Below are positions 9,521 to 34,220 of a DNA stretch of 64,000 bases, in pieces. A model generated the notes under the pieces. The model did no database searches. It had not been told where the DNA came from and saw only the letters and a list, made by a program, of their open reading frames with translations. Position 1 is the first letter of the stretch. Each line of letters starts with the position of its first letter. The position numbers and the translations under genes are program-made. The stretch is from Spirochaetales bacterium (lineage in GTDB: Bacteria; Spirochaetota; GWE2-31-10): NCBI GenBank assembly GCA_017624275.1, contig JAGANG010000078.1:45118-109117 (forward strand), given 5' to 3'.

Positions 9521-9527
9521 GATTGTT

Positions 9528-11674: not shown

Positions 11675-12373
11675 ATGGTGAAAAAAAAGATTTTAATTGT
11701 TGATGATGATAAGAAGTTGACTGATATTGTGCAAAAATATTTTATTCAATATGAGTTCAATGTTGTAATTATAAATGATGGAAAAGATGTTGATCAAGTT
11801 GTAGATACAGAAAAACCAGATATTATTTTATTAGATATAATGTTACCAGGAAAAAATGGTTTGGATTTGTTAAAAGATTTGCAAAAGAAAGTTGATGTTC
11901 CTATTATAATGCTGACAGCAAAAGGTGAAGAAATTGATAAAATAATAGGTTTAGAATTAGGTGCAGATGACTATATAACAAAACCTTTTTCAATAAGAGA
12001 ATTAAGTGCAAGAATAAGAAGTGTTTTAAGACGTTCTGCAAGTACACCTTTTGATTATACTCAAAAGAAAGAATTAGTTTTCGGTAATCTTGTAATTAAT
12101 GCAGACAAAAGAATGTTGATTGTTGATAATAATGAAATGGAATTAACAAAAACAGAATTTGAAATACTTTATTTATTAGCATCAAATCCTGAAAAAACTT
12201 TTACAAGAGAAGAATTATTAAAAGTAATCTCAGATAGAGATTATGAAAGTTTTGACCGTTCTGTAGATATGCATATAAGTCATTTAAGAAATAAATTGAA
12301 ACAACAAAAATCTGAAAATTGCAGTATTAGAACAGTTTGGGGTGCGGGATATAGATTTGAAGTTAAAAAATAA
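11675..12373 (+). CDS. two-component response regulator, OmpR family
   Basis: 232 aa. Receiver domain (ILIVDDD...DLxxLD..LPG) plus winged-helix trans_reg_C. Confidence 0.9.
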   Translation: MVKKKILIVDDDKKLTDIVQKYFIQYEFNVVIINDGKDVDQVVDTEKPDIILLDIMLPGKNGLDLLKDLQKKVDVPIIMLTAKGEEIDKIIGLELGADDYITKPFSIRELSARIRSVLRRSASTPFDYTQKKELVFGNLVINADKRMLIVDNNEMELTKTEFEILYLLASNPEKTFTREELLKVISDRDYESFDRSVDMHISHLRNKLKQQKSENCSIRTVWGAGYRFEVKK

Positions 12374-13748: not shown

Positions 13749-14338
13749 GTATATTGTTTTTGTTCTATAGCTTTTGACAAAGTGTGCTTATCAGCATATT
13801 CAAGAACCCCTCCCATAGGTAAACCGGTTGCAATTCTTGATATTTTAATATTTTGAAAAGTTGTTTTTATAAGATTTTGAAGGTATAAAAATGTAGCATC
13901 TCCTTCAATTGTAGGATTTGTAGCTACTAATATTTCTTCAAAATCTTTTTGATTTAATCTAAAAAGCAGTTCTTTTATTCTTAATTTTTCAGGAGTACGA
14001 TTTTCTAATGGATTTATTGTTCCGCCTAAAATATGATAAAAACCTGAAAAGACTCCGGTTTCCTCTATAGCTATCATATCTTTTTGTTCTTCAACAATAC
14101 ATAATATCTTACTATTTCTACTGTCGGATGAACAAATAGAGCATTTATCCGAATTGATAATAAAACAACCGCAATCAGAACAAAATTTGATGTTATCTTT
14201 TATATATGAAAGAACTTTTATAAAATCACCGGAATATTCTTTATTATTAACAAAGAAATAAGCAAGTTTAGAAGCTGTTTTTTTCCCGAGTCCCGGCAAT
14301 CGACTTAAAATAGCAATTAAATCTTCTATTTGATACAT
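13745..14338 (-). CDS. recR: recombination protein RecR
   Basis: Start at MYQIEDLIAILSRLPGLGKKTA (HhH), C4 zinc finger CSDCGCF...CSIC, Toprim domain. Its stop codon overlaps the kinase stop codon (convergent). Confidence 0.9.
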   Translation of the reverse strand: MYQIEDLIAILSRLPGLGKKTASKLAYFFVNNKEYSGDFIKVLSYIKDNIKFCSDCGCFIINSDKCSICSSDSRNSKILCIVEEQKDMIAIEETGVFSGFYHILGGTINPLENRTPEKLRIKELLFRLNQKDFEEILVATNPTIEGDATFLYLQNLIKTTFQNIKISRIATGLPMGGVLEYADKHTLSKAIEQKQYT

Positions 14339-14339
14339 A

Positions 14340-14654
14340 TTACTTTCCAAGAATTGAAGAAAAATCACCCAAAGAACTGCCAAAATCATTTTGGATTTTA
14401 TTCTTCATTTTTTCGCAGGCATCGTTTTGAGCACAAATTATTAAGTCTTTAAAAGTTTCTAAATCTTCAGTTATATATTTATTATTTTCATAAGCGATAT
14501 CAAGTATATTAAATTTCCCATTAATTTTAACCTTAACAAAACCACCGCCGGCTTCTCCGGTAACTTCATAAGTTTCTATTTTACTTTTCATTTCATCAGC
14601 TTTTTCTTTCAAAGAGTTAATATTAAAATTTTTTAACAAATCAAACGGTGACAT
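14340..14654 (-). CDS. ybaB: nucleoid-associated protein YbaB/EbfC
   Basis: 104 aa, YbaB family. Conserved dnaX-ybaB-recR order. Its stop is 1 nt before the recR ATG. Confidence 0.85.
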   Translation of the reverse strand: MSPFDLLKNFNINSLKEKADEMKSKIETYEVTGEAGGGFVKVKINGKFNILDIAYENNKYITEDLETFKDLIICAQNDACEKMKNKIQNDFGSSLGDFSSILGK

Positions 14655-14667
14655 TTCATTCTCCTTT

Positions 14668-16182
14668 TTATCTATATTCAGTACATGAAAAAATTTCTTT
14701 TAAGTTCTTTTTATTTATTTCGTAATCAGAAACAGTTTCTTTTTTTTCTGAGATTATTTCATTTTCAACAGGGGAAGAATTAGTAGAATCAATTTCTTTT
14801 TTAATCTCACTTTTTATAGAAACAGAAACTTCATTATTTTTTTTATCAGGTTTTATTACATTTTCAATTTTAGATTGAGATAAATCTTCATTTGGTATTA
14901 CTTCTTCTTTAATAACAGGAACAGTATTTTCAGAAGTAATATTATTTACTTTATTATCAGAAGATTTTTCTTGAACTTTATTGATTGTCGTTTGTTCTGT
15001 TTTACTGATTTCAACTTTTGGAACTTCAGTTAATTTTTTTTTTTCTAAAAATGAAGTTTGAAGCATTTTTATCTGTTTTAAAAGAGTTCCTGGTCTGATG
15101 AAATCTTTATATTTTGAAAGTTTAACCAGAAAGAATTCCAATTCAATTTCTTGATTAATTGAATATTTTAACTTTTCATAAAATTGAAAAGAGAGTTCCA
15201 TAATATTTTCAATATCATAAATGGATAACTTTTCTAATATTTCAGGTGAATAATAATTTGAATTACTTTTTATATCACCGGAAGAAATTTGGGATTTTAA
15301 CAAAAGCAAATCTCTAAAAAAAGAAATAATATCAGCAAGAATTTGTTCTATACGACAACCGGAACTAATCAAAGTTTCTAATTTAATATGAATATCCATA
15401 ATTTGTTCATTTAAAATAGAAGAAACTAATTGAGAAATTTGTTCCTTTCCGGCAAGCCCGAGTTTAGACTGAATCTTTTCAAGAGTTATCTCATTTCCAC
15501 AGAATGAAATAATTTGATCTAACAGCGTATAAGCATCACGCAGTGAACCTTTTCCTTCCTTTGCAATCCATTTAACACCATCATCATCGAATGCAATATT
15601 TTTATCAGTAAGGATTCTTTTAATATTATTTTCGATAATAGATGTAGGAATCAGTCGAAGATTAAACTGCTGACAGCGTGATTTTATAGTTGCCGGAACT
15701 TCATTTAATTCTGTAGTAGCAAAAATAAAAACAACATGTTCAGGAGGTTCTTCAATAGTTTTAAGAAGTGCATTAAAGGCACTTTTTGAAAGCATATGAA
15801 CTTCATCTATAATATAAATCTTATATTTTGCAGCAGCCGGTAAATATTGTATCTCTTCTTGAATCGTTTTAATGTTATTTATACTTGTATTTGAAGCACC
15901 ATCTATTTCAATAACATCACTATTAGTACCTTCTTTAATACTGATACATTGCGGACATTCATTACAAGGTTCTCCGGTAGGCCCGTGAATACAATTTAAA
16001 CCTTTGGCAATTAAACGAGCAGTAGTAGTTTTACCGACACCACGAGGACCGCTAAGTAAAAAGGCATTTGCAATTTTATGAGAGTTTAAAGAATTCTTAA
16101 TAGCAGTCGAGACAAAATCTTGTCCGACAAGAGAAGAAAAATTTTGTGGTCTATATTCAGTAGCTGTTGCTGTATGTGCCAT
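14668..16182 (-). CDS. dnaX: DNA polymerase III subunits gamma/tau
   Basis: 504 aa. AAA+ clamp-loader Walker A GPRGVGKTT, zinc module CNECPQC, SRC motif. Confidence 0.92.
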   Translation of the reverse strand: MAHTATATEYRPQNFSSLVGQDFVSTAIKNSLNSHKIANAFLLSGPRGVGKTTTARLIAKGLNCIHGPTGEPCNECPQCISIKEGTNSDVIEIDGASNTSINNIKTIQEEIQYLPAAAKYKIYIIDEVHMLSKSAFNALLKTIEEPPEHVVFIFATTELNEVPATIKSRCQQFNLRLIPTSIIENNIKRILTDKNIAFDDDGVKWIAKEGKGSLRDAYTLLDQIISFCGNEITLEKIQSKLGLAGKEQISQLVSSILNEQIMDIHIKLETLISSGCRIEQILADIISFFRDLLLLKSQISSGDIKSNSNYYSPEILEKLSIYDIENIMELSFQFYEKLKYSINQEIELEFFLVKLSKYKDFIRPGTLLKQIKMLQTSFLEKKKLTEVPKVEISKTEQTTINKVQEKSSDNKVNNITSENTVPVIKEEVIPNEDLSQSKIENVIKPDKKNNEVSVSIKSEIKKEIDSTNSSPVENEIISEKKETVSDYEINKKNLKEIFSCTEYR

Positions 16183-16204: not shown

Positions 16205-16435
16205 AATATTTAATCGGATAATAAAAAGCCCCTTTACACTCAAAACCGATTACACGCATAAATCTAAAAGGTACCGTTGCTATCTTCCGATCCTGGCGGG
16301 GTTAGTTTCATCATTATCGTATAGAGTCCTGAATTAAAAGAGGCAATTGAGGAATGAGGAATTGAACCTACGTATATCTTTTAGATATGTCAAATCGACC
16401 GATTAACCTTTCTCGCATTTCCCCATAAAAATGAG
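16205..16435 (-). ncRNA. ffs: candidate signal recognition particle RNA (ffs), long form with tRNA-like 5' portion
   Basis: On the minus strand the segment CCGCCAGGAUCGGAAGAUAGCAACGG resembles SRP RNA domain IV (consensus CCAGG..UCCGGAAGGAAGCAGC) with a GGAA tetraloop, compensatory closing pairs and the AGCA loop. The locus sits immediately upstream of dnaX, the conserved ffs position. An adjacent GGTTCAATTCC T-loop-like element may be an Alu-like domain. Boundaries are approximate. Confidence 0.35.
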
Positions 16436-16505
16436 CCAGAGAGGATTCGAACCTCCGACCTTTAGATCCGCAATCTAAAACTCTATCCAGCTGAGCTACT
16501 GGCTC
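16432..16505 (-). tRNA. tRNA-Arg (anticodon GCG as read)
   Basis: Cloverleaf with acceptor GAGCCAG/CTGGCTC, D-loop GCTCAGCTGGATAGAG, T-loop GGTTCGAATCC. Anticodon loop UUGCGGA. No CCA encoded. Confidence 0.8.
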
Positions 16506-16511
16506 GCTCTT

Positions 16512-16598
16512 CGGAAAGTGGGGGATTCGAACCCCCGATACGCACTAACGTATACACGCTTTCCAAGCGTGCACATTCGACCACTCTGACAACTTTCC
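16512..16598 (-). tRNA. tRNA-Ser (GGA)
   Basis: 87 nt, long variable arm, anticodon loop UUGGAAA, T-loop GGTTCGAATCC, acceptor GGAAAGT/ACTTTCC. Confidence 0.85.
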
Positions 16599-16605
16599 AG
16601 TGGAT

Positions 16606-16694
16606 CGGAGAGGAAGGGATTCGAACCCTTGGATCGGGGTAAGCCGATCAACTCCTTAGCAGGGAGCCCGATTCGACCACTCTCGCACCTCTCC
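16606..16694 (-). tRNA. tRNA-Ser (GCU)
   Basis: 89 nt, long variable arm, anticodon loop CUGCUAA, acceptor GGAGAGG/CCTCTCC. Confidence 0.85.
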
Positions 16695-16707
16695 TGTAAA
16701 TAAAAAA

Positions 16708-16794
16708 CGGAGAGCTAGGGATTCGAACCCCAGGTAGCCTCGCGACTACAACGGTTTTCAAGACCGCCTCTTTCAACCACTCAGACAGCTCTCC
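16708..16794 (-). tRNA. tRNA-Ser (UGA)
   Basis: 87 nt, long variable arm, anticodon loop CUUGAAA, acceptor GGAGAGC/GCTCTCC. Confidence 0.85.
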
Positions 16795-17108
16795 AATAGG
16801 TAATGATGAGTATTTAACCTTTTATTTTTTTTTTGTCAATAAAAAAAGATTATTTTTCTTAATAAGATTTATGAAGGGCAAGAATATTCCTGCAATTTAT
16901 CCCCAAAATTAACTTTTTCTCCGGTTGAGTCAGCAAATTTAGTTTAGGCTAAAACACCGTTTAAATAGCATTTCACGAGGCAAAATAAAAAAACTTCAAT
17001 TTTTTTCGTCAAACATGCAATGAAAAAGAAGAAAAGTTCTTTATATATAACGGAGAAATAATTGTTTTTGCACTACAAAAGCAAATTATTGTTTCCTAAT
17101 TTATATTT

Positions 17109-18059
17109 ATGGGAAAAATTATGACAAAAGAAAAAACAAATCATAATTACAAGGACTCGGTCTTTGTTGACCTGTTTGCACACGATGTGACAGCGAAAGA
17201 GAATTTCATTTCGCTCTACAACGCTTTACACGGTACGAATCTTGACGCAAAGACAACGGATGTTCAGCCGGTGATGTTAGAACGTGTACTTTACATGAAG
17301 TATTACAACGATATTGCCATGCTCATTGACGGTAAGATTGTGATTCTGATTGAACATCAATCGACAATCAATCAAAATATGCCCTTTCGGTTTCTGGAAT
17401 ACATCGCAAGAATTTATGAGAAAATCACCACAAAAGACGAGAAGTTCGGGCGTAAATTGGTGAAGTTGCCGATTCCGGAATTCTACGTTTTTTACAACGG
17501 AAAGGACGATTATCCGACAGAAAGTGTGATGAAATTGTCCGACGCATTCATGCAACTTGACGGCGAGTTGAAAAATCAGCTTGAAAATGCAAATTATCCG
17601 CTTGAAATATCCGTGAAAGTAGTTAATATTAACATGGATAAGGAAAACCCGATTTTGAAGCGTTGCGAGACATTAAAGCAATATTCAAAATTTATTGAAC
17701 AGGTGCGTTACAATATTGAGAATGTTGTTCCTGAGCCGTTTACGACTGCGATAAAAGAGGCAATCAAGAAAGGTTTTCTTTCTGATTATTTGAACCGAAA
17801 ATCAACGGAGGTACAAAATATGTTACTAGCAGAATATGATTATGATACAGACATTGCTGTTCAACGAAAAGAAGCCTTTGAAGATGGTATCGCAATCGGT
17901 GAAAAAGTAGGTGAAGAGCGTGGCATTTCTATCGGTTTGTCGCAGGGTGCACATCAAAAAGCTATTGAAACAGCTAGAAATGCATTAACAATGAATTTAT
18001 CTATAGAACAAGTTGCTACTCTTACCGGGCTAGCACCTGAGGAAATCGAAAAGCTTTAA
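17109..18059 (+). CDS. Rpn-family recombination-promoting nuclease / putative transposase (TIGR01784-like)
   Basis: 316 aa. N-terminal PD-(D/E)XK-like nuclease region and C-terminal repetitive tail (DGIAIGEKVGEERGISIG) typical of the multi-copy Rpn/YhgA family described in Treponema. Confidence 0.75.
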   Translation: MGKIMTKEKTNHNYKDSVFVDLFAHDVTAKENFISLYNALHGTNLDAKTTDVQPVMLERVLYMKYYNDIAMLIDGKIVILIEHQSTINQNMPFRFLEYIARIYEKITTKDEKFGRKLVKLPIPEFYVFYNGKDDYPTESVMKLSDAFMQLDGELKNQLENANYPLEISVKVVNINMDKENPILKRCETLKQYSKFIEQVRYNIENVVPEPFTTAIKEAIKKGFLSDYLNRKSTEVQNMLLAEYDYDTDIAVQRKEAFEDGIAIGEKVGEERGISIGLSQGAHQKAIETARNALTMNLSIEQVATLTGLAPEEIEKL

Positions 18060-19190
18060 AACAATAAAGGAAAACATAGATTCCAAAACAAGTTCGGAAG
18101 ACAGGAGCCATACGGATTGGTTCGACAAGCTTACGCTCGGTATTGAACTACCAAATGTTTTAGCGTCTTTTTCTCTTGGGAGTTATAGAGGGTATTCTCT
18201 TTTCATCGCAAAAAAGAGAATACCCTCTAACTTTTACCAACTTTGAACCAAAGTTGCATTTTGAGGCGGACTTGTCCGCAAATTGTCTTTAAACCCGGCG
18301 ACAGCCGAAGCCTTAAACAACAAAAACGCTTCAATGTCGGCTATGCCGACAAATAAAGCTCCAAACCTGCAAAGGTTTATAAAACTTTAAACCAAAGTTG
18401 GCATTTTAACGCCGGGCTACCCCGGCAAAACGTAGAATAACCGAGCGTAAGCCCACTTTCTATTAAAGTTTAGTTTTATGGCGGCGTGCCGAGGAATGGG
18501 GAGGTCATAGGAGGGGAAAACCTGCGGCCTTGCAAAGAGCCGGTGTTCCCCTCCTAAAGATTACACGTTTTGAACCCAAAACGATCTTTAAATGTCGGCT
18601 ATGCCGACAAATAAAGCTCCAAACCTGCAAAGGTTTATAAAACTTTAAACCAAAGTTTGCATTTTAAATGCCGGTATCGCCGGCGAATTGCCACACGGAT
18701 TCGAAATGTCTAACGACATTTCATGAAGTGAAAAAAGTAAGAATAAACTACAAATGTCAGAAGCGTTCTTTTCTTTTAGGGGTATAAGGGGAACTTTTCT
18801 TTTTATCGCAAAAAAGAAAAGCTCCCCTTTAATATTCGTTGTTCTTAGAACAACAAAAACGCTTTAGGGCAGGCTTGTCCGGCAAAACCGATTAAAACCA
18901 AAATGGTTTTATAAAGTTTTGAACCCAAAACGATTTTTTAATGCCTGCCGTCGGCAGGCAAAAGGAACTTTAAACCCAAGTGGGTTTATAAAACTTTGAA
19001 CTAAAGTTGTATTAAAAATGCCTGCCGAAGGCAGGCAAAACGTAGAATATCCGAGCGTAAGCCCTCTACTCCACTGTGGAGAACATCTAAAGTATAATCA
19101 TAGAATTGACAGTTTTTTTTTTTTTTTTACATTCTCTTTGCTTTTCCCCAGCCTTTACTATACTCAAGGGAGAAAAGCGAGGAGTTTAAA
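18060..19190. repeat. mosaic of short repeat and hairpin families
   Basis: Contains a 17-bp-stem hairpin (agagggtattctctttt...aaaagagaataccctct), palindrome arrays (aaactttgaaccaaagtt / gcattttaaatgc / gccggcatcgccggc / tgtcggctatgccgaca), a GGAGGGGAA...TTCCCCTCC hairpin and a ccgagcgtaagccc motif. All recur elsewhere in 18-28 kb in both orientations. Confidence 0.8.
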
Positions 19191-19192
19191 AT

Positions 19193-19927
19193 ATGGCAAA
19201 TAACAATCAATGGCAGGTCTACCTGCGACCGAACACACTCACAAAGGACAACGACAAAGACTGTATCGCCGATGTCCACCTAAACGGTGCGACTCTTACA
19301 AATGAAGACGTAGCACAAAGAATCGTCAGCGAACGAAGCGAATACCGCAAAGACACAATCATCAACATCCTAAATTTACGTGACAATGCAGTAAAGGCAT
19401 TCATTCAAGAATGCTCAAGTTTCCGTGACGGCTTGGTACAAATCACCCCACGTGTCAGCGGAGTATGGGAAAACGAAGCATCTGCATTCGACCCGGCAGT
19501 ACATAAAAGAACAGTAGACCTTGTACCGACAGCAGATCTGCGAAACACATTAGACGCAATATCTGTAAAAGTCATGGGAACGACATCCGCCGCTGCCCGA
19601 ATATCTGCAATCACAGACAGTGCAACGGGACTGAAAGACGGTACAATCACCATCGGAGATGACATCATCATCGACGGAGAAAAAATCAAAATCACAGACG
19701 AAACAGACCAAAATCAAGGTGTATTCATTGTAGATGCAACCGGCACAGAACACCGTGTAACACGCCGACTAACAGTAAACAAACCGAGCCAAATAATCGC
19801 CCGTGTACCGTCATCAGTACCAGCAGGAGCCGTGACAGTAAAAATCAAAACGAACTACAGCGGAAACAAAGCACCACTTTCTGCCATAAGGGAAATATCC
19901 TACGGCTATGAATGCACGGCGGTCTGA
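19193..19927 (+). CDS. HU-like DNA-binding domain protein with DUF4469-like C-terminal domain (Bacteroidetes-type)
   Basis: 244 aa. N-terminus (MANNNQWQVYL...LNGATLTNEDVAQRI...) resembles the Bacteroidetes 'HU family DNA-binding protein' family. GC content is clearly higher than the flanking chromosome. Confidence 0.7.
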   Translation: MANNNQWQVYLRPNTLTKDNDKDCIADVHLNGATLTNEDVAQRIVSERSEYRKDTIINILNLRDNAVKAFIQECSSFRDGLVQITPRVSGVWENEASAFDPAVHKRTVDLVPTADLRNTLDAISVKVMGTTSAAARISAITDSATGLKDGTITIGDDIIIDGEKIKITDETDQNQGVFIVDATGTEHRVTRRLTVNKPSQIIARVPSSVPAGAVTVKIKTNYSGNKAPLSAIREISYGYECTAV

Positions 19928-19947
19928 CTATCTGAAGTACACAGTAT

Positions 19948-20040
19948 GCCTTATGTGAGACCATCACATAAGGTGACCCCCGATGTACAGGACGCTCTAT
20001 GTGAGACCCTCACATAAGACGACCCCTGACATACAAGACG
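19948..20040 (+). repeat. two tandem about-46-nt hairpin units
   Basis: ccttatgtgagaccatcacataaggtgacccccgatgtacaggacg and ctctatgtgagaccctcacataagacgacccctgacatacaagacg. Each contains the inverted repeat tatgtgag...tcacata. Confidence 0.7.
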
Positions 20041-20596
20041 AACGACATCAAGCGTGTCCAAGGAGGGGAGAGGTTATAGGAGAGGGGAACCTTCGGACAT
20101 CGCAACTTTGAGATGGTTCCCCTCTCCTAAAAATTACCAACTTTGAACCCAAAACGATTTTTTAATGCCTGCCTTCGGCAGGCAAAAGGAACTTTAAACC
20201 TTCGTGGTTTAAAAAAGCTTTGAACAAAGCTTTAGCCCGGTGCCGGCATTGCCGGCGAATTGCCACACGGATTCGAAATGTCTAACGACATTTCATGAAG
20301 TGAAAAAAGTGAGAATGAACCACCGCAAGGAGTATGTTTTTTCTCTTTGGGGTTAAAGGGGGACTTCTCTTTTTGATTACAAAAAAAGAGAAATCCCCCT
20401 TAAAAACCTCGTTGTTCTCTGAACAACAAAAAAACTTCAGGGCAGGCTTGCCTGCAAAAGAAGCCTTGAACCTTGCAAAGGTTTAAAAAAACTTTGAACC
20501 AAAGTTGCATCTTAAATGCCGGCATCGCCGGCAAGCCGAAGCCTTAAACCCAGCATGGGTTTAAAAAAAATATTTGTAATAAAAAAAGGAGTACCC
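20041..20596. repeat. mosaic repeat block upstream of the LRR lipoprotein gene
   Basis: Contains the GGAGAGGGGAACC...GGTTCCCCTCTCC hairpin, the gaaatgtctaacgacatttc hairpin, the gggggacttctcttttt/aaaaagagaaatccccc hairpin and palindrome arrays. Its last about 190 nt are roughly 90% identical to 23337..23527. Confidence 0.8.
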
Positions 20597-22972
20597 ATGA
20601 AAAGATTCTTAATCTTGCCGTTAACATTCTTAATGTTAACATCCACCATCATCGGTTGTACGGAAGTACAAGAAAACACAGAAAACACACCCACAACCGA
20701 CGAACAAACTAAAGAGGAAGAAACACCGACAAAAGCCTCTTACACAATAGAACATTACAAACAAAACATTGATGACGACGAATACACCCTTGTAATTGCC
20801 GATACAGAAAACAAAAACGGCAAAATCGAAAATTATACATCAGCAATTGCAAAAGATTACGACGGATTTACATCACAAAAACCGGAACAGCAGAAAATTG
20901 CAGCAGACGGAAGTACAACGGTAAAAATCTATTACGACAGAAAAAAAATCACATTGACATTGAACCTATACGGCGGAAAAGGTGACAAAAGTATTACCGG
21001 CAAATACGGCGAGGCAGTAATCAACGCAACTGTTCCCACAAAGACAGACAGCCTTTTCAACGGCTGGGAACCGGCACTTCCTGCGACATTTCCCCTTGTG
21101 CCCACATTACATACAGCTGTATGGGTAAAAGGAAGCGACACCGTAACAGCAGACGGATGTACATATACAAAAGATATGAAAACTCTGCTGACGGCACAAA
21201 AAGACATTACAACGGCAACAATCCCCGACGGCGTAACTAAAATCGGTGAAAATGCATTTAAAGATTGTACCGCATTGACAAATATAACAATCCCGAACAG
21301 CGTGACAGAAATCGGCTTCTTCACATTTTCAGGTTGCGAAAACTTAGAATACAACGAATACAGCAACGCATTATATATCGGTAACGCCGACAATCCTTAT
21401 CTGATTCTGGTAAAAGCAAAAGACACATCGATAACATCTTGCGAAATCAACAACGACACAAAAATAATCTTATACGCAGCCTTTGACGGATGTAAAAATG
21501 TAGAAACCTTGGCAATCGGCGACGGCATTACATCATTCGACAATCTACCCATAACGCCGGCATTAAAAGAAGTCACAATCGGTAAAGGAATAACTTCAAT
21601 TTGTGATTATGCATTTTTTAATTGCAAGAACCTAACAAATGTAACACTCCCTGACAATGTGACAAAAATCGGAGAATCAGCATTCTCTTGTTGCGACAAC
21701 TTGGTAAATATATCAATCCCCGAAAGCGTAACTGAAATCGGAGACTATGCATTCTACGGCTGTGCAAGCTTGCCGGATATAACAATTCCCGACAACGTGA
21801 CGGAACTCGGAAACTATACTTTCTACGGTTGTAACAGCTTGGCGAGTATAACAATTCCCGACAACGTAACTGAAATCGGAAATCATGTTTTCTACGGTTG
21901 TGACAACTTGGCAAATATAACAATTCCCGACAACGTAACGGAAATCGGAACTCATGCATTCTACGGCTGTGCAAGCTTGGCAAATATAACAATCCCCGAC
22001 AACGTAACAGAAATCGGAAGCCATGCATTCTACAGTTGTGACAAATTGGCAAGTATAACGATTCCCGACAATGTAACTGAAATCAATGACTATACATTCT
22101 CTTGTTGTGACAACTTGGTAAATATATCAATCCCGGACAACGTGACAAAAATCGGAGAATATGCATTCTACGGCTGTGCAAGTTTGACAGACATGACAAT
22201 CCCCGACAGTGTAACTGAAATCGGTTTCAGAGCATTCAACGAGTGCAGTAACCTTACAAGTGTGACAATCGGTAACAGCGTAACTTTTATCGGTTACGAA
22301 GCATTCGAGAATTGCAGTAACTTAGAAAACGTATATATTTTCGATTTAGAAGCTTGGTGTAATATTGAGTTTGAATCCTCTGCAAATCCGCTAAGTAACG
22401 GAGCAAATTTATATTTAAACGGTAACCTGGTAAAAGATTTAGTAATCCCCGACAGCGTAGCTGAAATAAGAGGTGCTTTCGACGGTTGTTCAAGCTTAGA
22501 AAGTGTAATCATTCCTGACGGCAAGACTTCTACCGGTTGGTTCCGTTATTGCAGTAACTTAACAAGTGTTTCCATTCCGGACAGTGTAACTGAAATCAGT
22601 GGCTATGCATTCGAAGGTTGCAGTAGTTTAACAAGCGTAACAATTCCTGATAGCGTGATTACTATCGGCTACTATGCGTTCAGAGGTTGCTCTAGCCTAA
22701 TAAGCATAACAATCCCGGACGGTGTGACTGAAATCTGGAGCAGAGCATTCGAAAAGTGCAGTAGACTAACAAGTGTAATAATCCCTGACAAAGTAACTGA
22801 AATCGGTTTCAGTGCATTCAACGAGTGCAGTAACCTTACAAGTGTGACATTTAAAGATACTGTCGGCTGGAAATATGGCTGGGAAGAGATAGAAATCGAC
22901 GTAACAGATCCGGCACAAAACGCAATTTATTTAAAAGAGACTTATCACGGTAACTCTTGGTACAAAAAATAA
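20597..22972 (+). CDS. BspA-like leucine-rich-repeat surface lipoprotein
   Basis: 791 aa (ATG at 20597 behind RBS aaaggag). Lipoprotein signal MKRFLILPLTFLMLTSTIIGC. At least 20 copies of a 23-aa repeat IPDNVTEIGxYAFYGCxSLxxITIP (LRR_5/BspA type). Confidence 0.85.
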   Translation: MKRFLILPLTFLMLTSTIIGCTEVQENTENTPTTDEQTKEEETPTKASYTIEHYKQNIDDDEYTLVIADTENKNGKIENYTSAIAKDYDGFTSQKPEQQKIAADGSTTVKIYYDRKKITLTLNLYGGKGDKSITGKYGEAVINATVPTKTDSLFNGWEPALPATFPLVPTLHTAVWVKGSDTVTADGCTYTKDMKTLLTAQKDITTATIPDGVTKIGENAFKDCTALTNITIPNSVTEIGFFTFSGCENLEYNEYSNALYIGNADNPYLILVKAKDTSITSCEINNDTKIILYAAFDGCKNVETLAIGDGITSFDNLPITPALKEVTIGKGITSICDYAFFNCKNLTNVTLPDNVTKIGESAFSCCDNLVNISIPESVTEIGDYAFYGCASLPDITIPDNVTELGNYTFYGCNSLASITIPDNVTEIGNHVFYGCDNLANITIPDNVTEIGTHAFYGCASLANITIPDNVTEIGSHAFYSCDKLASITIPDNVTEINDYTFSCCDNLVNISIPDNVTKIGEYAFYGCASLTDMTIPDSVTEIGFRAFNECSNLTSVTIGNSVTFIGYEAFENCSNLENVYIFDLEAWCNIEFESSANPLSNGANLYLNGNLVKDLVIPDSVAEIRGAFDGCSSLESVIIPDGKTSTGWFRYCSNLTSVSIPDSVTEISGYAFEGCSSLTSVTIPDSVITIGYYAFRGCSSLISITIPDGVTEIWSRAFEKCSRLTSVIIPDKVTEIGFSAFNECSNLTSVTFKDTVGWKYGWEEIEIDVTDPAQNAIYLKETYHGNSWYKK
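21700..22210 (+). repeat. near-identical 69-bp tandem DNA repeats encoding the LRR units
   Basis: Repeated units aatataacaattcccgacaacgtaac(t/g)gaaatcggaa...ttctacggctgtgcaagcttggca in tandem. They also produce artefactual minus-strand ORFs. Confidence 0.85.
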
Positions 22973-23527
22973 AGTGAGAACGAACCACCGCAAGGAGTAT
23001 GTTTTTTCTCTTTGGGGTTAAAGGGGGACTTCTCTTTTTGATTACAAAAAAAGAGAAATCCCCCTTAAAAACCTCGTTGTTTCACTTGGTGTTTACAGAC
23101 GTAAACACTTCGTTCGTTCACGCAGTGAACTCACCACTGTTCTCTGAACAACAAAAAAGCTTTAGGGCAGGCTTACGCTCGGTATTTAACTGACGTTAAA
23201 TACTCCGTTCGTTCTACGAACTCACCGTTGCACAGTGACCGAGAGAACGAACTCCCGCTCCAAGCTTGCCAAGGAATGGGGAGGTCATAGGAGGGGAAAA
23301 CCTGCGGCCTGCAAAGAGCCGGTGTTCCCCTCCTAAAAATCCGTTGTTCTTAGAACAACAAAAAAGCTTCAGGGCAGGCTTGCCTGCAAAAGAAGCCTTG
23401 AACCTTGCAAAGGTTCGAAAAAGCTTTGAACCAAAGTTGCATTTTAAATGCCGGCATCGCCGGCAAAAGAAGCCTTAAACCCAAGTGGGTTTATAAAAAA
23501 ATATTTATTTTAAAAAGGAGTCATCTC
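22973..23527. repeat. mosaic repeat block upstream of the second lipoprotein gene
   Basis: Same hairpin and palindrome families as 20041..20596. Includes an 85-bp element (23068..23152) with an inverted copy at 27419..27503. Its 3' about 190 nt duplicate 20405..20596. Confidence 0.8.
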
Positions 23528-25327
23528 ATGAAAAGACTTTTAATTTTATTAACATTATTAATGTTTACTTTACCAAACTGCACAAACACTTCCGAAGACA
23601 GTGAAAACATATTCAACAATAACGAAAACACCACCCAAGACAAAACCGAAGAGGAAGAAGAACAAAAAGAAATCACGTTGACATCAAGCAAATTAACAAA
23701 TGTCACAATCAAAACTCCGCCGGTAAAAACAGAATACACCGCCGGCGAAACATTCGCCCCCGCAGGACTTTATTTGCAGGCAACATATACAGACACATAC
23801 TCCGACGGCACGCAAAAGGAAAACATCGAATTTATAGATTGCGAAACGGGAGCGGTCACATTCACAGGTACAGACTTTGCAGAGGCAGGCACAGCGACCG
23901 TCACAGTGACATACAAAGGGAAAAATGTCACATTCAGCGTAAAGGTAACAGAAAAGCCGGCATTCCCAACAATAGGAAACTACAAAATCACAGGCGAAGA
24001 CATCATAATAAGCGACTTTTCGGACATCACGGTATCGGGAAGCAGTGACGCAGAGTTCAATATATCTTTTCTCGCAACAAAACAGACACAGCTTTCACTG
24101 CCGGAAATAAGCAACATCGCAAAGGCTTTCCCAAACGCTACAATAACAGCAGATGATAAGATTTCATATACAATAAACGGCGGAACAAAAAGGGGAGATA
24201 TACCTGCTGATATTTTCACTTATAATACTTTAGTAGATAATGAATTTAAGGATTTGACAACATTTGCAATTGAAGGAAAAATATTAATTGATGAAACAAC
24301 AGATGTTAATTCCACTGAACACTATGATAATAGACCTGTAAAAATAAGAACTATTACGTTGGACAACGGCACGACTCTTAATATAACAGGAAAATATCTT
24401 GATATCGGACGAAATCGTTTTAAAGTTACTAACAATGCAGTTGTTAATCTGTCTGATGATATAGAAATTACAACATATGATAATAGTGAAAATTCTAGTC
24501 CAACTCATGCAAATATTACTTCCGACATCGCTAATACGCAATTTGACGCATTGGGCCTCACCACCCCAAACTTTGATTTAGCAATCTCTGATGAAAATTT
24601 ATATAATTTCGCTCACAATATTCTTGATAGATATGATAGTTTCGATAAGACAAAGCATAAATTAAAATCATCCTCTTATTTTAATGGTAATTTGAATAAT
24701 TCTACAAATGTTTTATATACAGGAGATGCTCTAGTATCAGAAGAAGATCGTCCAACTTTAAAGTTTTCTAGTGTTAAATATATTTCTGATAAGAATAAGT
24801 TGATAACAATGTATAATCTTGTAATAAATAATAATATTCCTGTAGAGGATAATACTAATCTAGATGTGACTGCAGATTTTACAAATATTGTATTTGAAGG
24901 AGATTTTTCTAATTTTCATAATAAAGGAAGTTTTGAAGGCATATCTCATTTTATGGGTAATCCGATGCAAGGTGTTTCAAATTCTAATGGATATGTAAAA
25001 GTTGATTACGTTGATACTAATGTAGGTGAAATATTTGGAGATATTATAGATCTTACCGACTTGTCAGATGATATAATGTATGATATAGGTTCTAATAGAA
25101 ATATGATGTTAGGAGGAGCTGCTGATGTTATAGGTATCTTTAGAGATGAGAAACAACAAGTTGCGGCTGAAAATATACGTAAGAAAGGTAGTAACCTTGG
25201 TTTTAAGCCTGTTTATTTGCAAGATAATCCTAAGCATAAAAATGAGTTTATTAAAACCCTTGCAGATTGGGAAGTGGAATATAATTCTTCGAAAAAACTT
25301 CAATCTTCAAATACTGCTCAACAGTAA
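23528..25327 (+). CDS. surface lipoprotein with N-terminal Ig-like domain and AT-rich C-terminal region
   Basis: 599 aa (ATG at 23528 behind RBS aaaggag). Lipobox LLMFTLPNC. Residues about 50-190 are GC-rich and look Ig-like (TVTVTYKGKNVTFSVKV). From about nt 24180 the composition switches to AT-rich unrelated sequence. Confidence 0.75.
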   Translation: MKRLLILLTLLMFTLPNCTNTSEDSENIFNNNENTTQDKTEEEEEQKEITLTSSKLTNVTIKTPPVKTEYTAGETFAPAGLYLQATYTDTYSDGTQKENIEFIDCETGAVTFTGTDFAEAGTATVTVTYKGKNVTFSVKVTEKPAFPTIGNYKITGEDIIISDFSDITVSGSSDAEFNISFLATKQTQLSLPEISNIAKAFPNATITADDKISYTINGGTKRGDIPADIFTYNTLVDNEFKDLTTFAIEGKILIDETTDVNSTEHYDNRPVKIRTITLDNGTTLNITGKYLDIGRNRFKVTNNAVVNLSDDIEITTYDNSENSSPTHANITSDIANTQFDALGLTTPNFDLAISDENLYNFAHNILDRYDSFDKTKHKLKSSSYFNGNLNNSTNVLYTGDALVSEEDRPTLKFSSVKYISDKNKLITMYNLVINNNIPVEDNTNLDVTADFTNIVFEGDFSNFHNKGSFEGISHFMGNPMQGVSNSNGYVKVDYVDTNVGEIFGDIIDLTDLSDDIMYDIGSNRNMMLGGAADVIGIFRDEKQQVAAENIRKKGSNLGFKPVYLQDNPKHKNEFIKTLADWEVEYNSSKKLQSSNTAQQ

Positions 25328-25394
25328 CCCTGTAACAGCATTTTAATTATACATACACGCCTGCGGGACTTTTTCGCCCCCGGGCTTTTTTTAT

Positions 25395-26100
25395 GTCCTC
25401 TCCCCCTTTAGCAGGAAGGCTCTTTTCGTCGGCATAGCCGACACAGAGCTAAAGCAGACTTTAAGGTGCAACGGCTTTCGCAGGGTTCGGGGACAATTTG
25501 TCCGCCTACGGCGGACGGCGAGGCTAAAGCTTTCTTCAAAGCAAAACCACGAGGGTTTAAAGTTCCTTTTGCAGGCAAAGCCTGCATTTAGGAATCGTTT
25601 TGGGTTCAAAACGTGTAAATCTTTAGGAGAGGGGAACCATCTCAAAGTTGCGATGTCCGAAGGTTCCCCTCTCCTATAACCTCTCCCTTCCTTGGACACG
25701 CTTGGAGTGGGAGTTCATTCTCACTTCTTGAAATCTCGTAGACGATTGGTGCATTTCGACTACGCTCAATGACCGTTTTTCTTTTATTTTCTGTTTGGTG
25801 AGCCACGGTGAATGTACGTAGTACATGAACGAAATGTTTACTTTAGTAAACATCGAGCGTAAGCCACGGTGAGTTCGTAGAACGAACGGAGTATTTCCGA
25901 TAGGAAATACCGAGAGAAAGCTTGTCGAACCAATCAGTGTGGCTCCTGTCTTCCGAACTTGTTTCGGAATCTCTACTTCCACAGGCTTTTAGATGTCTAC
26001 GGAATATTCTTTACAGCAATGTACATTTTTTATATAAAGCTATCGGAAATGCTTAAGTTTCAGGCGGCGTCTCCCAAACTCAATAATTAATTGAAACAGG
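25395..26100. repeat. mosaic repeat block, reverse-orientation copies
   Basis: Reverse complements of the 18-23.5 kb families (tcgtcggcatagccgaca, gcaggcaaagcctgc, TTTAGGAGAGGGGAACC...GGTTCCCCTCTCC hairpin) plus an about-200-bp unit (25746..25980) repeated directly at 27628..27862. Confidence 0.8.
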
Positions 26101-26111
26101 GAGGCTTGTCT

Positions 26112-26213
26112 ATGACTATAGAATTAGTTTTATCAGTAGTGACTTGTATTGCTACGGTAACTGGTACAGTTATAGCATTGCTCTCTTTCCTAAAAAAGAA
26201 AGATAAAGAGTAA
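26112..26213 (+). CDS. small hydrophobic peptide (type-I-toxin-like), 33 aa
   Basis: MTIELVLSVVTCIATVTGTVIALLSFLKKKDKE. Single TM helix plus charged tail, RBS gggagg 7 nt upstream. Not in the supplied track because it is under 60 aa. Confidence 0.35.
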   Translation: MTIELVLSVVTCIATVTGTVIALLSFLKKKDKE

Positions 26214-26329
26214 AAAATAAAGCCGCCAAAATGACTCGAAACTACTTTTGACGGCTCTTAGCTAAAATCGTGGAGACGACCAAATGAACTTGGGCATTTC
26301 CTTTTTTTAATATACACCTACTAATTCTT

Positions 26330-26560
26330 TTTTGCAAGAACGTTTTCTACTTCCTTTTTTTATATCTCCATGACTACGAAGTATTTAACGTCAGTCATTT
26401 GATGTTTTCTTACGAAAACATCGAGCGTAAGCCACGGTGAGTTCGTAGAACGAACGGAGTATTTCCGATTAGGAAATACCGAACGAGCTTGTCGAAGTAA
26501 TCCGGTGTGGCTCCTGTCTTCCGACTTGTTTCGGAATCTCTACTTCGAAAGGCTTTTTAT
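26330..26560. repeat. third partial copy of the about-200-bp repeat unit
   Basis: catcgagcgtaagccacggtgagttcgtagaacgaacggagtatttccgattaggaaataccga...cttgtttcggaatctctacttcg, matching 25850..25980 and 27735..27850. Confidence 0.75.
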
Positions 26561-26634
26561 TATTGCTGCTGCGTTTGTTTCTTCTAAGACTTTTTGATAT
26601 AATATAGTAATAATTTTTACTTGGAGGTAGAACT

Positions 26635-26850
26635 ATGTCATTAGCGATATTGGAACAAAAAATAGCTACTTTACCAACACTATGTGTTACTGAACTTGAA
26701 GATTATGTTGATTTTCTAATTCAGAAATATTGTACAAATAAAAAAGACGATGAAACAGAATCATATTTTGGAGCTTTAAAAAATAAAATATCATTTATTT
26801 CTTCTGATTTCGATGAGCCTCTCGAAGAAGATTTTAAGGATTATATGTAA
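26635..26850 (+). CDS. DUF2281-like type II antitoxin
   Basis: 71 aa. ATLPTLCVTELEDYVDFLIQKY resembles DUF2281 antitoxins, and the C-terminus is acidic. RBS ggagg. Directly precedes a PIN-domain ORF. Confidence 0.55.
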   Translation: MSLAILEQKIATLPTLCVTELEDYVDFLIQKYCTNKKDDETESYFGALKNKISFISSDFDEPLEEDFKDYM

Positions 26851-27231
26851 TGGAAAAATATCTTTTTAGATACACATGCAATTCTTTGGTATTTTCAAGG
26901 AAATGAAAATCTACCAAAGAAAATACGTACAATTATAGAATCTAAATCATGTTTTTACAGCATTATATCTTTTTGGGAAATTGCAATAAAGCAAAAGTTA
27001 GGCAAATTGGATTCATCTTTTTCAATCCAAGAACTTGAATCCATGTGTACAAAAGCAAATATACAAATTGCTCCTATCACATCAAAATCCATAGAAACAA
27101 CAAAATTTTTGCCTTTAATTCACAGAGACCCTTTCGACCGACTTTTAATTGCTCAAGCAAAAAACTTAAACTTAATATTAATTACCAAAGACATGTTCAT
27201 TCCGCAATACGATGTGAAAATTTTATGGTAA
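26851..27231 (+). pseudogene. vapC: PIN-domain VapC-like toxin gene whose start codon is out of frame
   Basis: The frame from 26851 encodes (W)KNIFLDTHAILWYFQGNENLP...DPFDRLLIAQAKNLNLILITKD, with the PIN signature motifs. It has no in-frame ATG. An ATG at 26850 is +1 out of frame, just upstream of a 5-A run (26854..26858). Confidence 0.6.
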
Positions 27232-27239
27232 ACAGCCCG

Positions 27240-27870
27240 AGGAATTTTTTATTTTCTAAACCTTTGCAAGGTTTGGGGATTCGGCTTGCAGACTGCGATG
27301 GCTGTCGCCGGGTTCAGGGGCATATTGTCCACCTACGGCGGACGGCGGTGCTAAAGCTTTCTTCAAAGCTTTTTTAAACCACGTGGGTTTAAAGTTCCTT
27401 TTGCAGGCAAAGCCTGCCTCATAGCGTTTTTGTTGTTCAGAGAACAGTGGTGAGTTCACAGCGTGAACGAACGAAGTGTTTACGTCTGTAAACACCAAGT
27501 GAAACAACGAGGTTTTAAGGGGGGCTTTTCTTTTTTGCGATAAAAAGAAAAGTTCCCCTTTGACCCCTAAAAGAAAAGAACGCTCCTTTAGGTGAGTTCA
27601 TTTTCACTTTTTAATATCTCATGCGGTTGGTGCATTTCGACTACGCTCAATGACCGTTTTTCTTTTATTTTCTGGTTGGTGAGCCACGGTGAATGTACGT
27701 AGTACATGAACGAAATGTTTACTTTAGTAAACATCGAGCGTAAGCCACGGTGAGTTCGTAGAACGAACGGAGTATTTCCGATTAGGAAATACCGAGAGAA
27801 AGCTTGTCGAAGTAATCCGGAGTGACTTCTGTCATTCCGACTTGTTTCGGAATGTTTTTGCACTACTAAA
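27240..27870. repeat. mosaic repeat block, reverse-orientation copies
   Basis: Contains gtccacctacggcggac, gcaggcaaagcctgc, the inverted 85-bp element (27419..27503), the ggggggcttttctttttt/aaaaagaaaagttcccc hairpin and the direct about-200-bp unit (27628..27862). Confidence 0.8.
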
Positions 27871-27994
27871 AATAAAGATGATTGTTTCACGTGAAACATG
27901 AATATTTTTACATAAATTATTATTTAGTTGGAAAGTAATATTAAAAAATATATAATAGGGAATAAAATTAAAAGCACACTTTGGAGGGTTTTGA

Positions 27995-28333
27995 ATGAGT
28001 GAAGAATTAAGAACAGAGCGTAGAGTATCAGTGGAAATGGTTCCGGAAGATTTAAGAGAGTTTAATTTTTCTGCAGGATTATTTCATGAAAAACAAGCTG
28101 AGCTTGCAAATCTTAGTAAGGGCGGAATCAGCTTTTTAACGGATGATGTAGATAATCATTATGAAATAGGACAAAAGTTAAAAATTATGTTTTCTTCCAG
28201 AAAAATAAAGCTTTCTGGAAAAATTGTTTATGTTTATCGTGTAAATGATACAAAAATGAAAATCGGAATGTTTTTATCTCCGTCTGCCGAGTTAGATGAA
28301 ATAAAAGAAATTATTGATAATATATCAGAATAA
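27995..28333 (+). CDS. PilZ domain protein
   Basis: 112 aa with the c-di-GMP-binding PilZ motifs RTERR (RxxxR) and NLSKGGISF (D/NxSxGG). Confidence 0.7.
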   Translation: MSEELRTERRVSVEMVPEDLREFNFSAGLFHEKQAELANLSKGGISFLTDDVDNHYEIGQKLKIMFSSRKIKLSGKIVYVYRVNDTKMKIGMFLSPSAELDEIKEIIDNISE

Positions 28334-33827: not shown

Positions 33828-33959
33828 GAAAACTTGTATTTTTATTGCTTTAAACTAACAAAATATGCAATAATGTTGGTTGAAACAATATTTCTTAGCC
33901 ATTTATTGTTTTCACAAATAAAAACCGGAGTGCTGAAAAAAATCTGCAAAAATTTTTTT

Positions 33960-34155: not shown

Positions 34156-34220
34156 TTGCAAAAGGGAAAATCTTTCCGGTAAGGAAAGAAGAAATAAATA
34201 ATAATTTTAAGGAGAAAAAA

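Follow-up and report, generated by a model that had tools for sequence, protein, structure and literature searches.

The 64,000-nucleotide stretch analysed here (positions 45,118 to 109,117 of contig JAGANG010000078.1, assembly GCA_017624275.1, from a Spirochaetales bacterium; hereafter the window) carries an island of approximately 11 kb between a tRNA cluster and pilZ (16.8-27.9 kb), in which a small set of genes is separated by spacers built from hairpin-forming repeats. The genes lie in the order Rpn, HU-DUF4469, a BspA-type leucine-rich repeat (LRR) lipoprotein, a Big_3 lipoprotein, an open reading frame (ORF) of 33 amino acids (aa) and a VapBC pair, followed by pilZ (Table 1); Pfam confirmed the gene identities proposed in a first-pass annotation of this DNA. 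The six spacers following Rpn, each 0.4-1.1 kb long, sum to 4.3 kb of approximately 10.9 kb. That annotation had described every intergenic stretch from Rpn to pilZ as being composed of recurring elements, which holds for most but not all of the intergenic sequence: repeat coverage of the six spacers was 0.79, 0.95, 0.94, 0.66, 0.37 and 0.73, the unique portions being promoter-proximal and cassette-specific parts, and the spacer preceding Rpn (16796-17108) holds none of the island repeats. Coding regions have essentially no repeat coverage, except for repeats internal to the LRR gene.

Table 1 Features of the island and its borders in window coordinates.
Feature	Position	Strand	Basis or remark
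Left core boundary: SRP RNA (16236-16333), tRNA-Arg, three tRNA-Ser	16236..16795	-	ARAGORN, Rfam
Rpn-family PD-(D/E)XK nuclease gene (Transposase_31)	17109-18059	+	PF04754, 42 bits (cutoff 21)
X unit (67-nt hairpin plus leader running into linker GCTTACGCTCG), left terminal unit of the mosaic	18078..18144	+	93% inverted pair
X unit, inverted copies	25906-25975, ~26483-26550, 27788-27855	-	Repeat search, strain comparison
T-hairpin family, 17-20-bp stem	18163-18256, 18763-18862, 20334-20432, 23000-23101	+	
T-hairpin family, reversed copy	27483-27583	-	
Long-stem hairpins	18186-18229, 18786-18829, 20353-20404, 23018-23069, 27511-27561		
Four-hairpin array unit, ~100 nt	18330-18429, 18588-18687, 18863-18962, 20436-20535, 23368-23467	+	
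Four-hairpin array unit, reversed pieces	~25400-25623, ~27250-27420	-	
G hairpin GGAGGGGAA...TTCCCCTCC, ~45-nt stem-loop plus leader	18484-18562, 20049-20135, 23264-23340	+	
G hairpin, reversed copy	25620-25704	-	
M block with gaaatgtc-taac-gacatttc hairpin	18687-18740 (hairpin 18703-18722), 20259-20312 (hairpin 20275-20294)	+	
HU-DNA_bdg + DUF4469 gene	19193-19927	+	Pfam; PDB 4fmr
Two tandem hairpins directly 3′ of the HU stop codon	19949..20016	+	
BspA-type LRR_5 lipoprotein gene	20597-22972	+	Pfam; internal 69-nt (23-aa) tandem repeats
Two-hairpin (2HP) modules, two forward	23089..23232	+	
2HP modules, reversed	~25802-25865, 27444-27507, 27683-27746	-	
2HP modules, partial	25873-25910, 26401-26479, 27754-27792		
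Big_3 lipoprotein gene	23528-25327	+	Pfam
R-unit + X reversed: head-to-tail 2HP modules ending in X	25732..25975	-	
R-unit + X, other copies	27613-27855 (full), 26402-26550 (partial)		Full copy 96% over 170 nt
33-aa hydrophobic ORF MTIELVLSVVTCIATVTGTVIALLSFLKKKDKE	26112-26213	+	Strong GGGAGG ribosome-binding site
VapB (DUF2281) + PIN toxin-antitoxin cassette	26635-27231 (DUF2281/VapB 26635-26850)	+	NF050009 TA_VapB, PF01850
PilZ gene	27995-28333		Pfam; promoter 27928-27956

Between 15.5 and 29 kb, we found at least 60 direct repeat families and 89 inverted pairs, and resolved seven repeat families, designated T, four-hairpin array, G, M, post-HU tandem, X and 2HP. The kinds of element listed in the first-pass annotation (long-stem hairpins, arrays of GC palindromes, two named hairpins and longer units) all exist; its 85-bp and about-200-bp units correspond to 2HP modules placed head to tail behind X, with units of 81-85 nt and 170-176 nt present. 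The T-hairpin occurs five times in the window and 41 times over all loci, and the G hairpin occurs three times forward and once in reverse, with one copy bearing a compensatory two-base insertion on both arms. The array unit, to which the GC palindromes and A-rich spacers of the first-pass annotation correspond, consists of a GC palindrome, an A-rich spacer, an AAACC..GGTTT hairpin, an CTTTGAAC..AAAG hairpin and a second GC palindrome, while the 2HP module reads CTTACGCTCG, hairpin A (8-9 bp), TYCRTTC, hairpin B (5-6 bp) and TCACCGTGGC, with TCACC after hairpin B, and repeats with a period of 57-59 nt without terminal inverted repeats.

The units run head to tail, all forward at 18.0-23.5 kb and all in reverse at 25.3-27.9 kb, the orientation switching across Big_3. 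Every long inverted pair joins one zone to the other, so that this zoning, already seen in the first-pass annotation, is real. The mosaic is bounded by inverted copies of X, since X lies forward just after the Rpn stop codon and reversed at 25.9, 26.5 and 27.8 kb; the right terminal copy is the last mosaic element ahead of the pilZ promoter in all strains. Furthermore, every island gene sits between direct repeat copies. HU is bracketed by 18687-18993 and 20259-20570, and LRR by a 114-nt repeat (98%; 20303-20416 and 22968-23081) and by a 176-nt repeat (83%; 20394-20569 and 23326-23501) that is the conserved 5′ flank of the LRR/Big_3 paralogues. The small cassettes, namely the 33-aa ORF and the toxin-antitoxin pair, are bracketed by direct R/X copies.

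To describe pairing, we defined a perfect hairpin as a stem of at least 7 bp with a loop of 3-8 nt. The island spacers contain 47 such hairpins in 4.2 kb (11.1/kb), or 5-15 separate hairpins per spacer, compared with 1.3 ± 1.0 (0.3/kb) after shuffling, 2.0/kb in non-island spacers, 0.6/kb in island coding sequences and 0.8-1.5/kb in the rest of the window. Folding of the 821-nt spacer at 18230-19050 gave z-scores of -15.4 (plus strand) and -11.9 (minus strand). Covariation was read by extracting the stem of each copy; MAFFT alignments put the hairpin arms out of register. The 41 T-hairpin copies fall into four to five stem variants that keep complementarity through changes on both arms, and 38 unique copies of the four-hairpin unit display 7-17 distinct stems per position, nearly all perfectly self-complementary. 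When 2HP modules were located by their linkers alone, 17 unique modules were recovered; hairpin A had 7-9 terminal Watson-Crick pairs in 15 of them and hairpin B had 5-6 pairs in all 17, compared with 0.4 in shuffles. The A stems were of eight kinds and the B stems of seven, the single-stranded linkers being conserved and the perfect stems covarying freely. This covariation proves that pairing matters in the hairpins, without telling RNA from DNA. Stems were perfect in 70 of 98 unique hairpins, and single mismatches in this set showed no strand bias (G.T in 7, A.C in 9); the symmetry of the stems leans toward DNA, or both strands, as the paired molecule. No island element matched an Rfam 15 family at the gathering threshold, which only tRNAs and the signal recognition particle (SRP) RNA passed, and the island matches at the E-value level were generic hairpins far below it.

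We fetched ten loci from other assemblies (given L numbers here) and compared gene order and zoning in nine strains; contigs from 394 collection blocks encode the exact PilZ protein. Identity to the window was 98-99% in the flanks and 87-96% in the island genes, the spacers were rearranged, and module composition differed in almost every spacer between strains. Gene content also varied: HU was missing from L004 and L006, the toxin-antitoxin pair was missing from L004, L006 and L007, and the 33-aa ORF, otherwise invariant between strains, was present in zero to two copies per strain. These differences across the ten other assemblies bear out the earlier description of an accessory, strain-variable island, which occupied the same site in all strains seen. 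The order Rpn-HU-LRR-Big_3-(33aa)-(TA)-(33aa)-pilZ, in which parentheses mark members that can be lacking and TA the toxin-antitoxin pair, was constant in nine strains, and the modules pointed forward to the left of Big_3 and in reverse to its right in nine of nine. No inversion was found in any of the nine strains, all large matches being collinear; this collinearity ruled out a shufflon-like inversion between the forward and reverse zones.

Given that every gene is bracketed by direct repeats, the strain differences in gene content can be explained by deletion and duplication between direct copies. The spacer preceding LRR in L004 and L006 is a patchwork that matches the window's pre-LRR, then pre-HU, then again pre-LRR spacer, and its switches fall within shared hairpin modules. 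In the last 420 nt before pilZ, strains differ by whole modules, with junctions at CGAGCGTAAGC/CGAGCGAAAGC (11 nt), GGAGTG (6 nt) and CAGT (4 nt); junctions thus lie in conserved linkers or in microhomologies of 4-11 nt. Within Big_3, the stretch 24667-24877 is hypervariable and had no megablast match in several strains, and in the L004 and L006 alleles only the first 600 nt are shared. Together with the chimeric composition of the gene, the hypervariable stretch and these alleles that are alike only at the 5′ end suggest recombination within Big_3. Of the repeat-mediated shuffling considered in the first-pass annotation, deletion, duplication and patchwork conversion are therefore upheld, and inversion is not.

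Besides taking part in recombination, one module gives signs of insertion. In L002, L003, L005a and L009, a 59-nt insert equal to one full 2HP period (TTAGCTTG, hairpin A, TTCATTC, hairpin B, TCATCATTGC) interrupts the 33-aa ORF, which is whole in the window, L001, L004 and L005b; this gives an empty-versus-filled site polymorphism for this module. The insert sits after CATTGC, is flanked by CATTGC(T) and introduces a premature stop codon. The flanking motif is also the 3′ linker of the module itself, and the target resembles the 2HP 3′ linker (CGTGGC or CGTTGC), a likeness that would explain the head-to-tail arrays. In addition, L002, but not L001, has an extra 57-nt module at a linker, flanked by CGAKCGTAAGC and CGAGCGAAAGC, and in L004, L006 and L010 the hairpin A loop of one module holds a second module. 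At least one family, 2HP, thus proliferates as a small insertion module, as shown once; the earlier suggestion of proliferation resembling that of miniature inverted-repeat transposable elements fits this one family. The pattern would fit either a single-stranded DNA (ssDNA) element, similar to REPIN/RAYT (doublets of repetitive extragenic palindromic, REP, sequences and their REP-associated tyrosine transposases) or derived from IS200/IS605 in the manner of palindrome-associated transposable elements (PATEs), or microhomology-templated copying.

The repeats are not spread evenly. The other 53 kb of the window contain no further copy of the island repeat families. A module related to the mosaic families lies at 33936-34127, on the left edge of a second strain-variable segment; it occurs in the islands of other strains and recurs next to LRR genes at L015, L020, L027 and L057. 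When 185,579 species genomes, one per species, were scanned with a 19-base hairpin pattern, real copies were found only in two related 'Spirochaetota bacterium' faecal metagenome-assembled genomes (MAGs), spread over at least eight contigs and mostly neighbouring LRR_5 or HU-DUF4469 genes or the end of a contig. With this pattern, viral contigs produced nothing beyond isolated chance hits and JGI metagenomes two short contigs that were real, and the repeats had no blastn match in plasmid and phage collections. A second island of the host lineage, beside asparagine synthase, combines the window's repeat families with Rpn, HU and two LRR genes, and a 270-nt block ahead of LRR genes keeps the same orientation relative to the gene at another island.

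The same layout recurs elsewhere with unrelated sequences. Treponema sp. HNW (L055; CP144459, 2.65-2.67 Mb) carries Rpn, a 1.4-kb spacer, HU-DUF4469, LRR_5 and Rpn; a Treponema locus in CP051200 (L063) carries an Rpn-like gene, LRR_5, HU-DUF4469 and Rpn; and two metagenomic Treponema-like contigs (L064 and L066) have HU-DUF4469 next to LRR genes. Hairpin-dense spacers flank the HU-DUF4469, LRR and Rpn genes in all four of these distant Treponema-type loci; over these loci and the second island of the host lineage, the island spacers hold 5.3-10.4 perfect hairpins per kb compared with 0.3-1.0 elsewhere. The HNW spacers show no similarity to the window in sequence and have repeat families of their own, with loops of the ATCCGTG type, including a tandem hairpin set at the equivalent place after HU (L055 10748-10885), and a promoter-like TTTAGA-17-TATAAT precedes the array leading into the Rpn gene. 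Such recurrence without homology suggests a function or a common generating mechanism. Open-access literature searches (DUF4469, TIGR01784/Treponema, Treponema hairpin repeats, BspA islands) yielded no description of these repeats.

We consider it somewhat better than even, at roughly 55%, that the locus is a strain-variable surface-protein island in which hairpin modules, similar to REPs and bacterial interspersed mosaic elements (BIMEs), drive recombination while one module spreads. The island combines multi-copy families of the Treponema type (Rpn, HU-DUF4469, BspA-LRR and Big_3) with chains of lineage-specific palindromic modules. The repeats supply every gene with portable homology and would also serve as sites of hairpin-induced breakage or slippage, the latter role being our inference, and would drive deletion, duplication and gene conversion among paralogous islands, diversifying the surface proteins. 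At least the 57-59-nt 2HP module would also spread, behaving as a non-autonomous element of small size. It might transpose as an ssDNA hairpin, in the manner of REPIN/RAYT or PATE/IS200-IS605, with targets that look like its 3′ linker CRTTGC, or it might be copied from a microhomology template, a process that the abundant Rpn nucleases may stimulate. To judge from their position after stop codons and before ribosome-binding sites, the hairpins probably also act in transcripts, in termination or in protection of mRNA ends.

Several points weigh against this reading. The comparison loci are short-read metagenome assemblies in which many contigs end within the island and repeats may be mis-joined; that independent assemblies concur in gene order, zoning and module grammar argues against an assembly artefact. 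The fixed forward/reverse zoning of all strains is left unaccounted for. The clean empty-versus-filled insertion is a single case, and since the four strains carry the same 59 nt without a difference, it may represent one event spread by conversion. Pfam scans of the ORFs in the 64-kb window revealed no Y1/HUH transposase, RAYT or integrase that could mobilize the module. Wobble pairs were uninformative about the strand of action, with no G-U excess among the 98 unique hairpins, and a role of the hairpins in RNA is not demonstrated because neither a G-U excess nor strand asymmetry is present. Moreover, for a layout that recurs without homology, purely selfish repeats are a poorer fit than a needed function or a generating enzyme shared by these loci.

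The repeats might alternatively be conserved 5′ and 3′ untranslated flanks of paralogous surface genes under RNA selection, the mosaic arising from homologous recombination with nothing mobile. The 270-nt pre-LRR block that keeps its gene-relative orientation at another island, the hairpins just past stop codons and just ahead of ribosome-binding sites, the plentiful compensatory stem changes and the promoter-like sequence before the HNW array would all fit, and a role as intrinsic terminators has been put forward for hairpin clusters (PMC8355165). Nevertheless, reversed copies lie beside plus-strand genes at 25.3-27.9 kb, the stems show neither G-U enrichment nor strand bias, most small hairpins lack U-tracts in either orientation, modules are inserted in a coding sequence and in a hairpin loop, and spacers of 0.4-1.1 kb far exceed normal untranslated regions; on balance, we regard this explanation as possible but unlikely. 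A different proposal makes the hairpin chains a DNA-level platform, cruciform or single-stranded, that HU-DUF4469 binds or Rpn cuts, resulting in LRR regulation or in programmed exchange akin to antigenic variation; Treponema and this lineage would have the device in common. Two background facts would count in its favour: HU-family proteins are known to attach to DNA that is distorted or four-way, and structure specificity occurs in several PD-(D/E)XK nucleases. So would the association of Rpn, HU-DUF4469 and LRR_5 with hairpin-dense spacers at six loci of at least five lineages (5.3-11.1 versus 0.3-1.5 hairpins/kb), the lack of sequence homology between the spacers of those loci, stems that are perfect and strand-symmetric as DNA palindromes should be, and the folding of both strands far better than shuffles. 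The arrays remain, however, in the strains without island HU (L004 and L006), the solo Rpn gene between core genes has no arrays, gene order is constant over nine strains, and E. coli RpnA had neither structure nor sequence specificity in reported assays (PMC5350276), leaving this proposal improbable. Its boldest form, in which the covarying chains are the obligatory DNA component of an undescribed spirochaete system whose HU-DUF4469 protein, Rpn-type nucleases or both act on extruded hairpins or cruciforms and so control or exchange BspA-type LRR genes, with the 2HP module as the unit copied by this machinery or by an ssDNA transposase, we hold to be quite improbable; the unrelated hairpin chains beside the same gene families in distant spirochaetes and the flip of repeat orientation at Big_3 in every strain leave room for it.

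Models based on known mobile elements fared worse. Under an integron-like cassette array as in the chromosomal integrons of Treponema (PMC3607928), which the first-pass annotation had entertained, the integrase would lie beyond the window; the 33-aa ORF and VapBC do vary by strain, and each is followed by a repeated unit. Yet Pfam found no tyrosine recombinase in the 64 kb or within ±10 kb in ten strains, and a search of 16.8-28.0 kb on either strand returned zero R″(RYYYAAC)/R′(GTTRRRY) pairs by the 57-141-bp attC criterion. Treponema attC sites are single sites of 63-132 bp (PMC3607928), whereas the spacers here measure 400-1100 bp and hold 5-15 hairpins each. In addition, the cassette sets are subsets of a single order, (33aa)-(TA)-(33aa), for which direct-repeat deletion suffices, and the host is not a Treponema; the integron is scarcely credible. 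An integrative mobile element or prophage remnant at a tRNA gene, to which the adjoining tRNA cluster, the atypical GC content and the toxin-antitoxin genes might point, is very improbable: the island has no integrase, phage or conjugation genes, abuts the 5′ end of tRNA-Ser without a repeated tRNA fragment, finds no counterpart among viral contigs, phages or plasmids, and occupies the same site in all strains seen. Both models were set aside as failing on the features that define them, namely an integrase, attC sites, permuted order and a tRNA repeat. Finally, we rejected the idea of the repeats travelling on a transposon formed by the Rpn gene, given that this gene lacks terminal inverted repeats and that a solo copy lacks the mosaic; published work on rpn genes agrees (PMC10327210).

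Several described repeat systems share features with the island. As in REP/BIME, short GC-rich extragenic palindromes are mixed with other motifs into intergenic mosaics, are often positioned just past stop codons, are lineage-specific and are tied to recombination and mRNA-end effects. In contrast, REP/BIME units of enterobacteria and pseudomonads alternate in orientation, whereas the island units run head to tail within a zone; island stems vary freely while the linkers are conserved; the copies are concentrated, as far as seen, in a few surface-protein islands rather than in hundreds of spacers; and the 64-kb window has no RAYT gene. The 2HP module resembles REPIN/RAYT and PATE elements in its two hairpins, its conserved single-stranded flanking motifs, its lack of terminal inverted repeats and its insertion as one unit beside a sequence resembling its own 3′ end, which would favour head-to-tail arrays. 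It is, however, smaller than most PATEs, no Y1/HUH transposase accompanies it in the window, and microhomology-templated copying explains the same junctions. BOX of Streptococcus pneumoniae (boxA-boxB(n)-boxC) and Correia/NEMIS of Neisseria are likewise modular, with a variable number of internal modules and stable hairpins near surface or virulence genes, but they are unrelated in sequence, and the island combines at least seven families at one locus, with modules nested in hairpin loops.

Among spirochaetes, the integron arrays of Treponema also consist of strain-specific small cassettes, toxin-antitoxin genes included, with structured repeats between them; unlike these, the island has no IntI, no attC architecture and no single site per cassette, and it contains large genes with their own promoters. 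Other rpn (YhgA-like) regions share multi-copy, horizontally moving genes without terminal inverted repeats or target-site duplications (TSDs), paralogues of varying length and a location in variable regions, but the association of a hairpin-chain spacer with HU-DUF4469 and LRR was not found in the papers searched. The oral Treponema loci (HNW, CP144459, and CP051200) are alike in gene families, in gene order and in long hairpin-dense spacers with local repeats, and differ in that the spacer sequences are unrelated, the HNW context is GC-richer and the host here belongs to another, low-GC lineage.

The GC-richer genes described in the first-pass annotation were evident in GC content at third codon positions (GC3), which reached 0.39 in Rpn, 0.43 in HU, 0.40 in LRR and 0.43 in the 5′ part of Big_3, against a mean of 0.22 (range 0.14-0.30) for 25 core genes; the 3′ part of Big_3 (from ~24.2 kb) has a value of 0.17, and the toxin-antitoxin genes (0.14-0.24) are host-like. 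Core GC content is itself uneven, at 24-29% in the origin-proximal 16 kb (1-16000) and 30-38% past the island (28000-64000). Protein identity to Treponema sp. HNW was 68% for HU and 50% for Rpn, and the closest HU-DUF4469 homologues beyond the host species are multi-copy oral Treponema proteins (64-69% identity). This composition and affinity make the proposed horizontal origin of the GC-richer families plausible. Any transfer is not recent, given that the gene families and their repeats are old multi-copy residents of the lineage, and GC-biased gene conversion among recombining paralogues could be an alternative or contributing source of the high GC content. The host's DnaX was 99% identical to matches from the same species and 72-78% identical to those from uncultured relatives; the best named match was 'Spirochaetes bacterium GWF1_31_7' (63%), and no Treponema was present among the best 120. 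Judged by these protein matches, the host is not a Treponema but a member of a different, low-GC uncultured gut Spirochaetota lineage.

Assignment of the Rpn protein to the nuclease family rests on its N-terminal PD-(D/E)XK domain match through PF04754; its TIGR01784 score (46.9 bits) is below the 52.1 cutoff. The repeated Rpn gene unit (~16987-18068) is without terminal inverted repeats. The family comprises 3948 clusters at 90% identity below 1e-20, more than 120 of them 84-95% identical to the window copy, and paralogues measure 301-341 aa; the solo Rpn genes between core genes in L061 and L062 have no mosaic around them. Two highly divergent Rpn-type genes can occupy one position, as seen on comparing L002, L007 and L008: Transposase_31 (312-316 aa) or PDDEXK_2 (279 aa), having in common only the last ~115 nt and the downstream X unit. 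Previous studies described rpn genes as horizontally moving nuclease/antitoxin genes without terminal inverted repeats or TSDs, and not as transposases (PMC10327210), and RpnA as a low-specificity endonuclease proposed to make substrates for microhomology-mediated assembly (PMC5350276).

Further along the island, a promoter-like site (19106-19133) precedes the HU-DUF4469 gene, and a terminator-like hairpin with a T7 run (~25361-25395) follows Big_3. The 33-aa ORF had no family match and looks like a type I toxin-like membrane peptide. A VapB antitoxin followed by a PIN toxin ORF identifies the neighbouring pair as type II VapBC; the PIN (VapC) gene (26850-27231) is frameshifted in the window, with T5 at 26862-26866 where five strains have T4, reflecting either inactivation of the toxin in this strain or a homopolymer sequencing error.

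The window begins at dnaA (35-1504), dnaN (1750-2859) and recF (2860-3945), followed by rnpA, yidC, jag and radA and later by recR and dnaX in a profile search of its ORFs; the genes from dnaA to radA place it beside the replication origin. The distance from dnaA to the island is only ~17 kb, and the island genes are all co-oriented with the rightward fork. The island adjoins the 5′ end, and not the 3′ end, of tRNA-Ser(tga). Pfam scans covered ORFs of at least 110 aa across the 64-kb window together with smaller island ORFs; apart from the Rpn-family protein, no integrase or transposase was found in any scanned ORF, and no phage or conjugation genes were found in the island. The second strain-variable segment (34200-39000) encodes an AAA ATPase, four small unknown genes and a DUF4143 ATPase in the window and most strains; L004 and L006 carry YccF, DUF4143 and other genes there instead.

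Three further observations concern related loci. In the hairpin-rich Rpn/HU-DUF4469 spacer of Treponema sp. HNW, L055 9183-9430 is a perfect 7-nt microsatellite (CACTCAG, ~35 copies) and a candidate slipped-strand phase-variation tract. In L066 (5078-5470, 9236-10921), the pair of LRR and HU-DUF4469 genes has a 130-aa leuA fragment (IPMS_D2) on one side and a complete leuA gene on the other, as if an insertion had duplicated part of leuA. A copy of the repeat mosaic in L015 (518-5309; fecal_MAG_478) stands directly downstream of sbcC and sbcD, and the lineage thus appears to keep the hairpin-cutting SbcCD nuclease despite its many perfect palindromes.

In spirochaetes and other mucosal bacteria, BspA-type LRR lipoproteins serve in adhesion and in interaction with the host. 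The locus shows how genes of this kind stay variable with no phage, integrase or classical insertion sequence involved, through their embedding in portable hairpin-rich modules that recombine and sometimes insert. The combination of conserved linkers with free stems offers a signature for a putative hairpin-recognizing activity, for which an HUH transposase, an Rpn nuclease and an HU-like binder are candidates. Because the spacers break short-read assemblies, the gene families that they flank are likely under-represented in MAGs. Genes and hairpins are combined in the same way in distant Treponema with sequences that are unrelated, which suggests that such islands follow a general principle.

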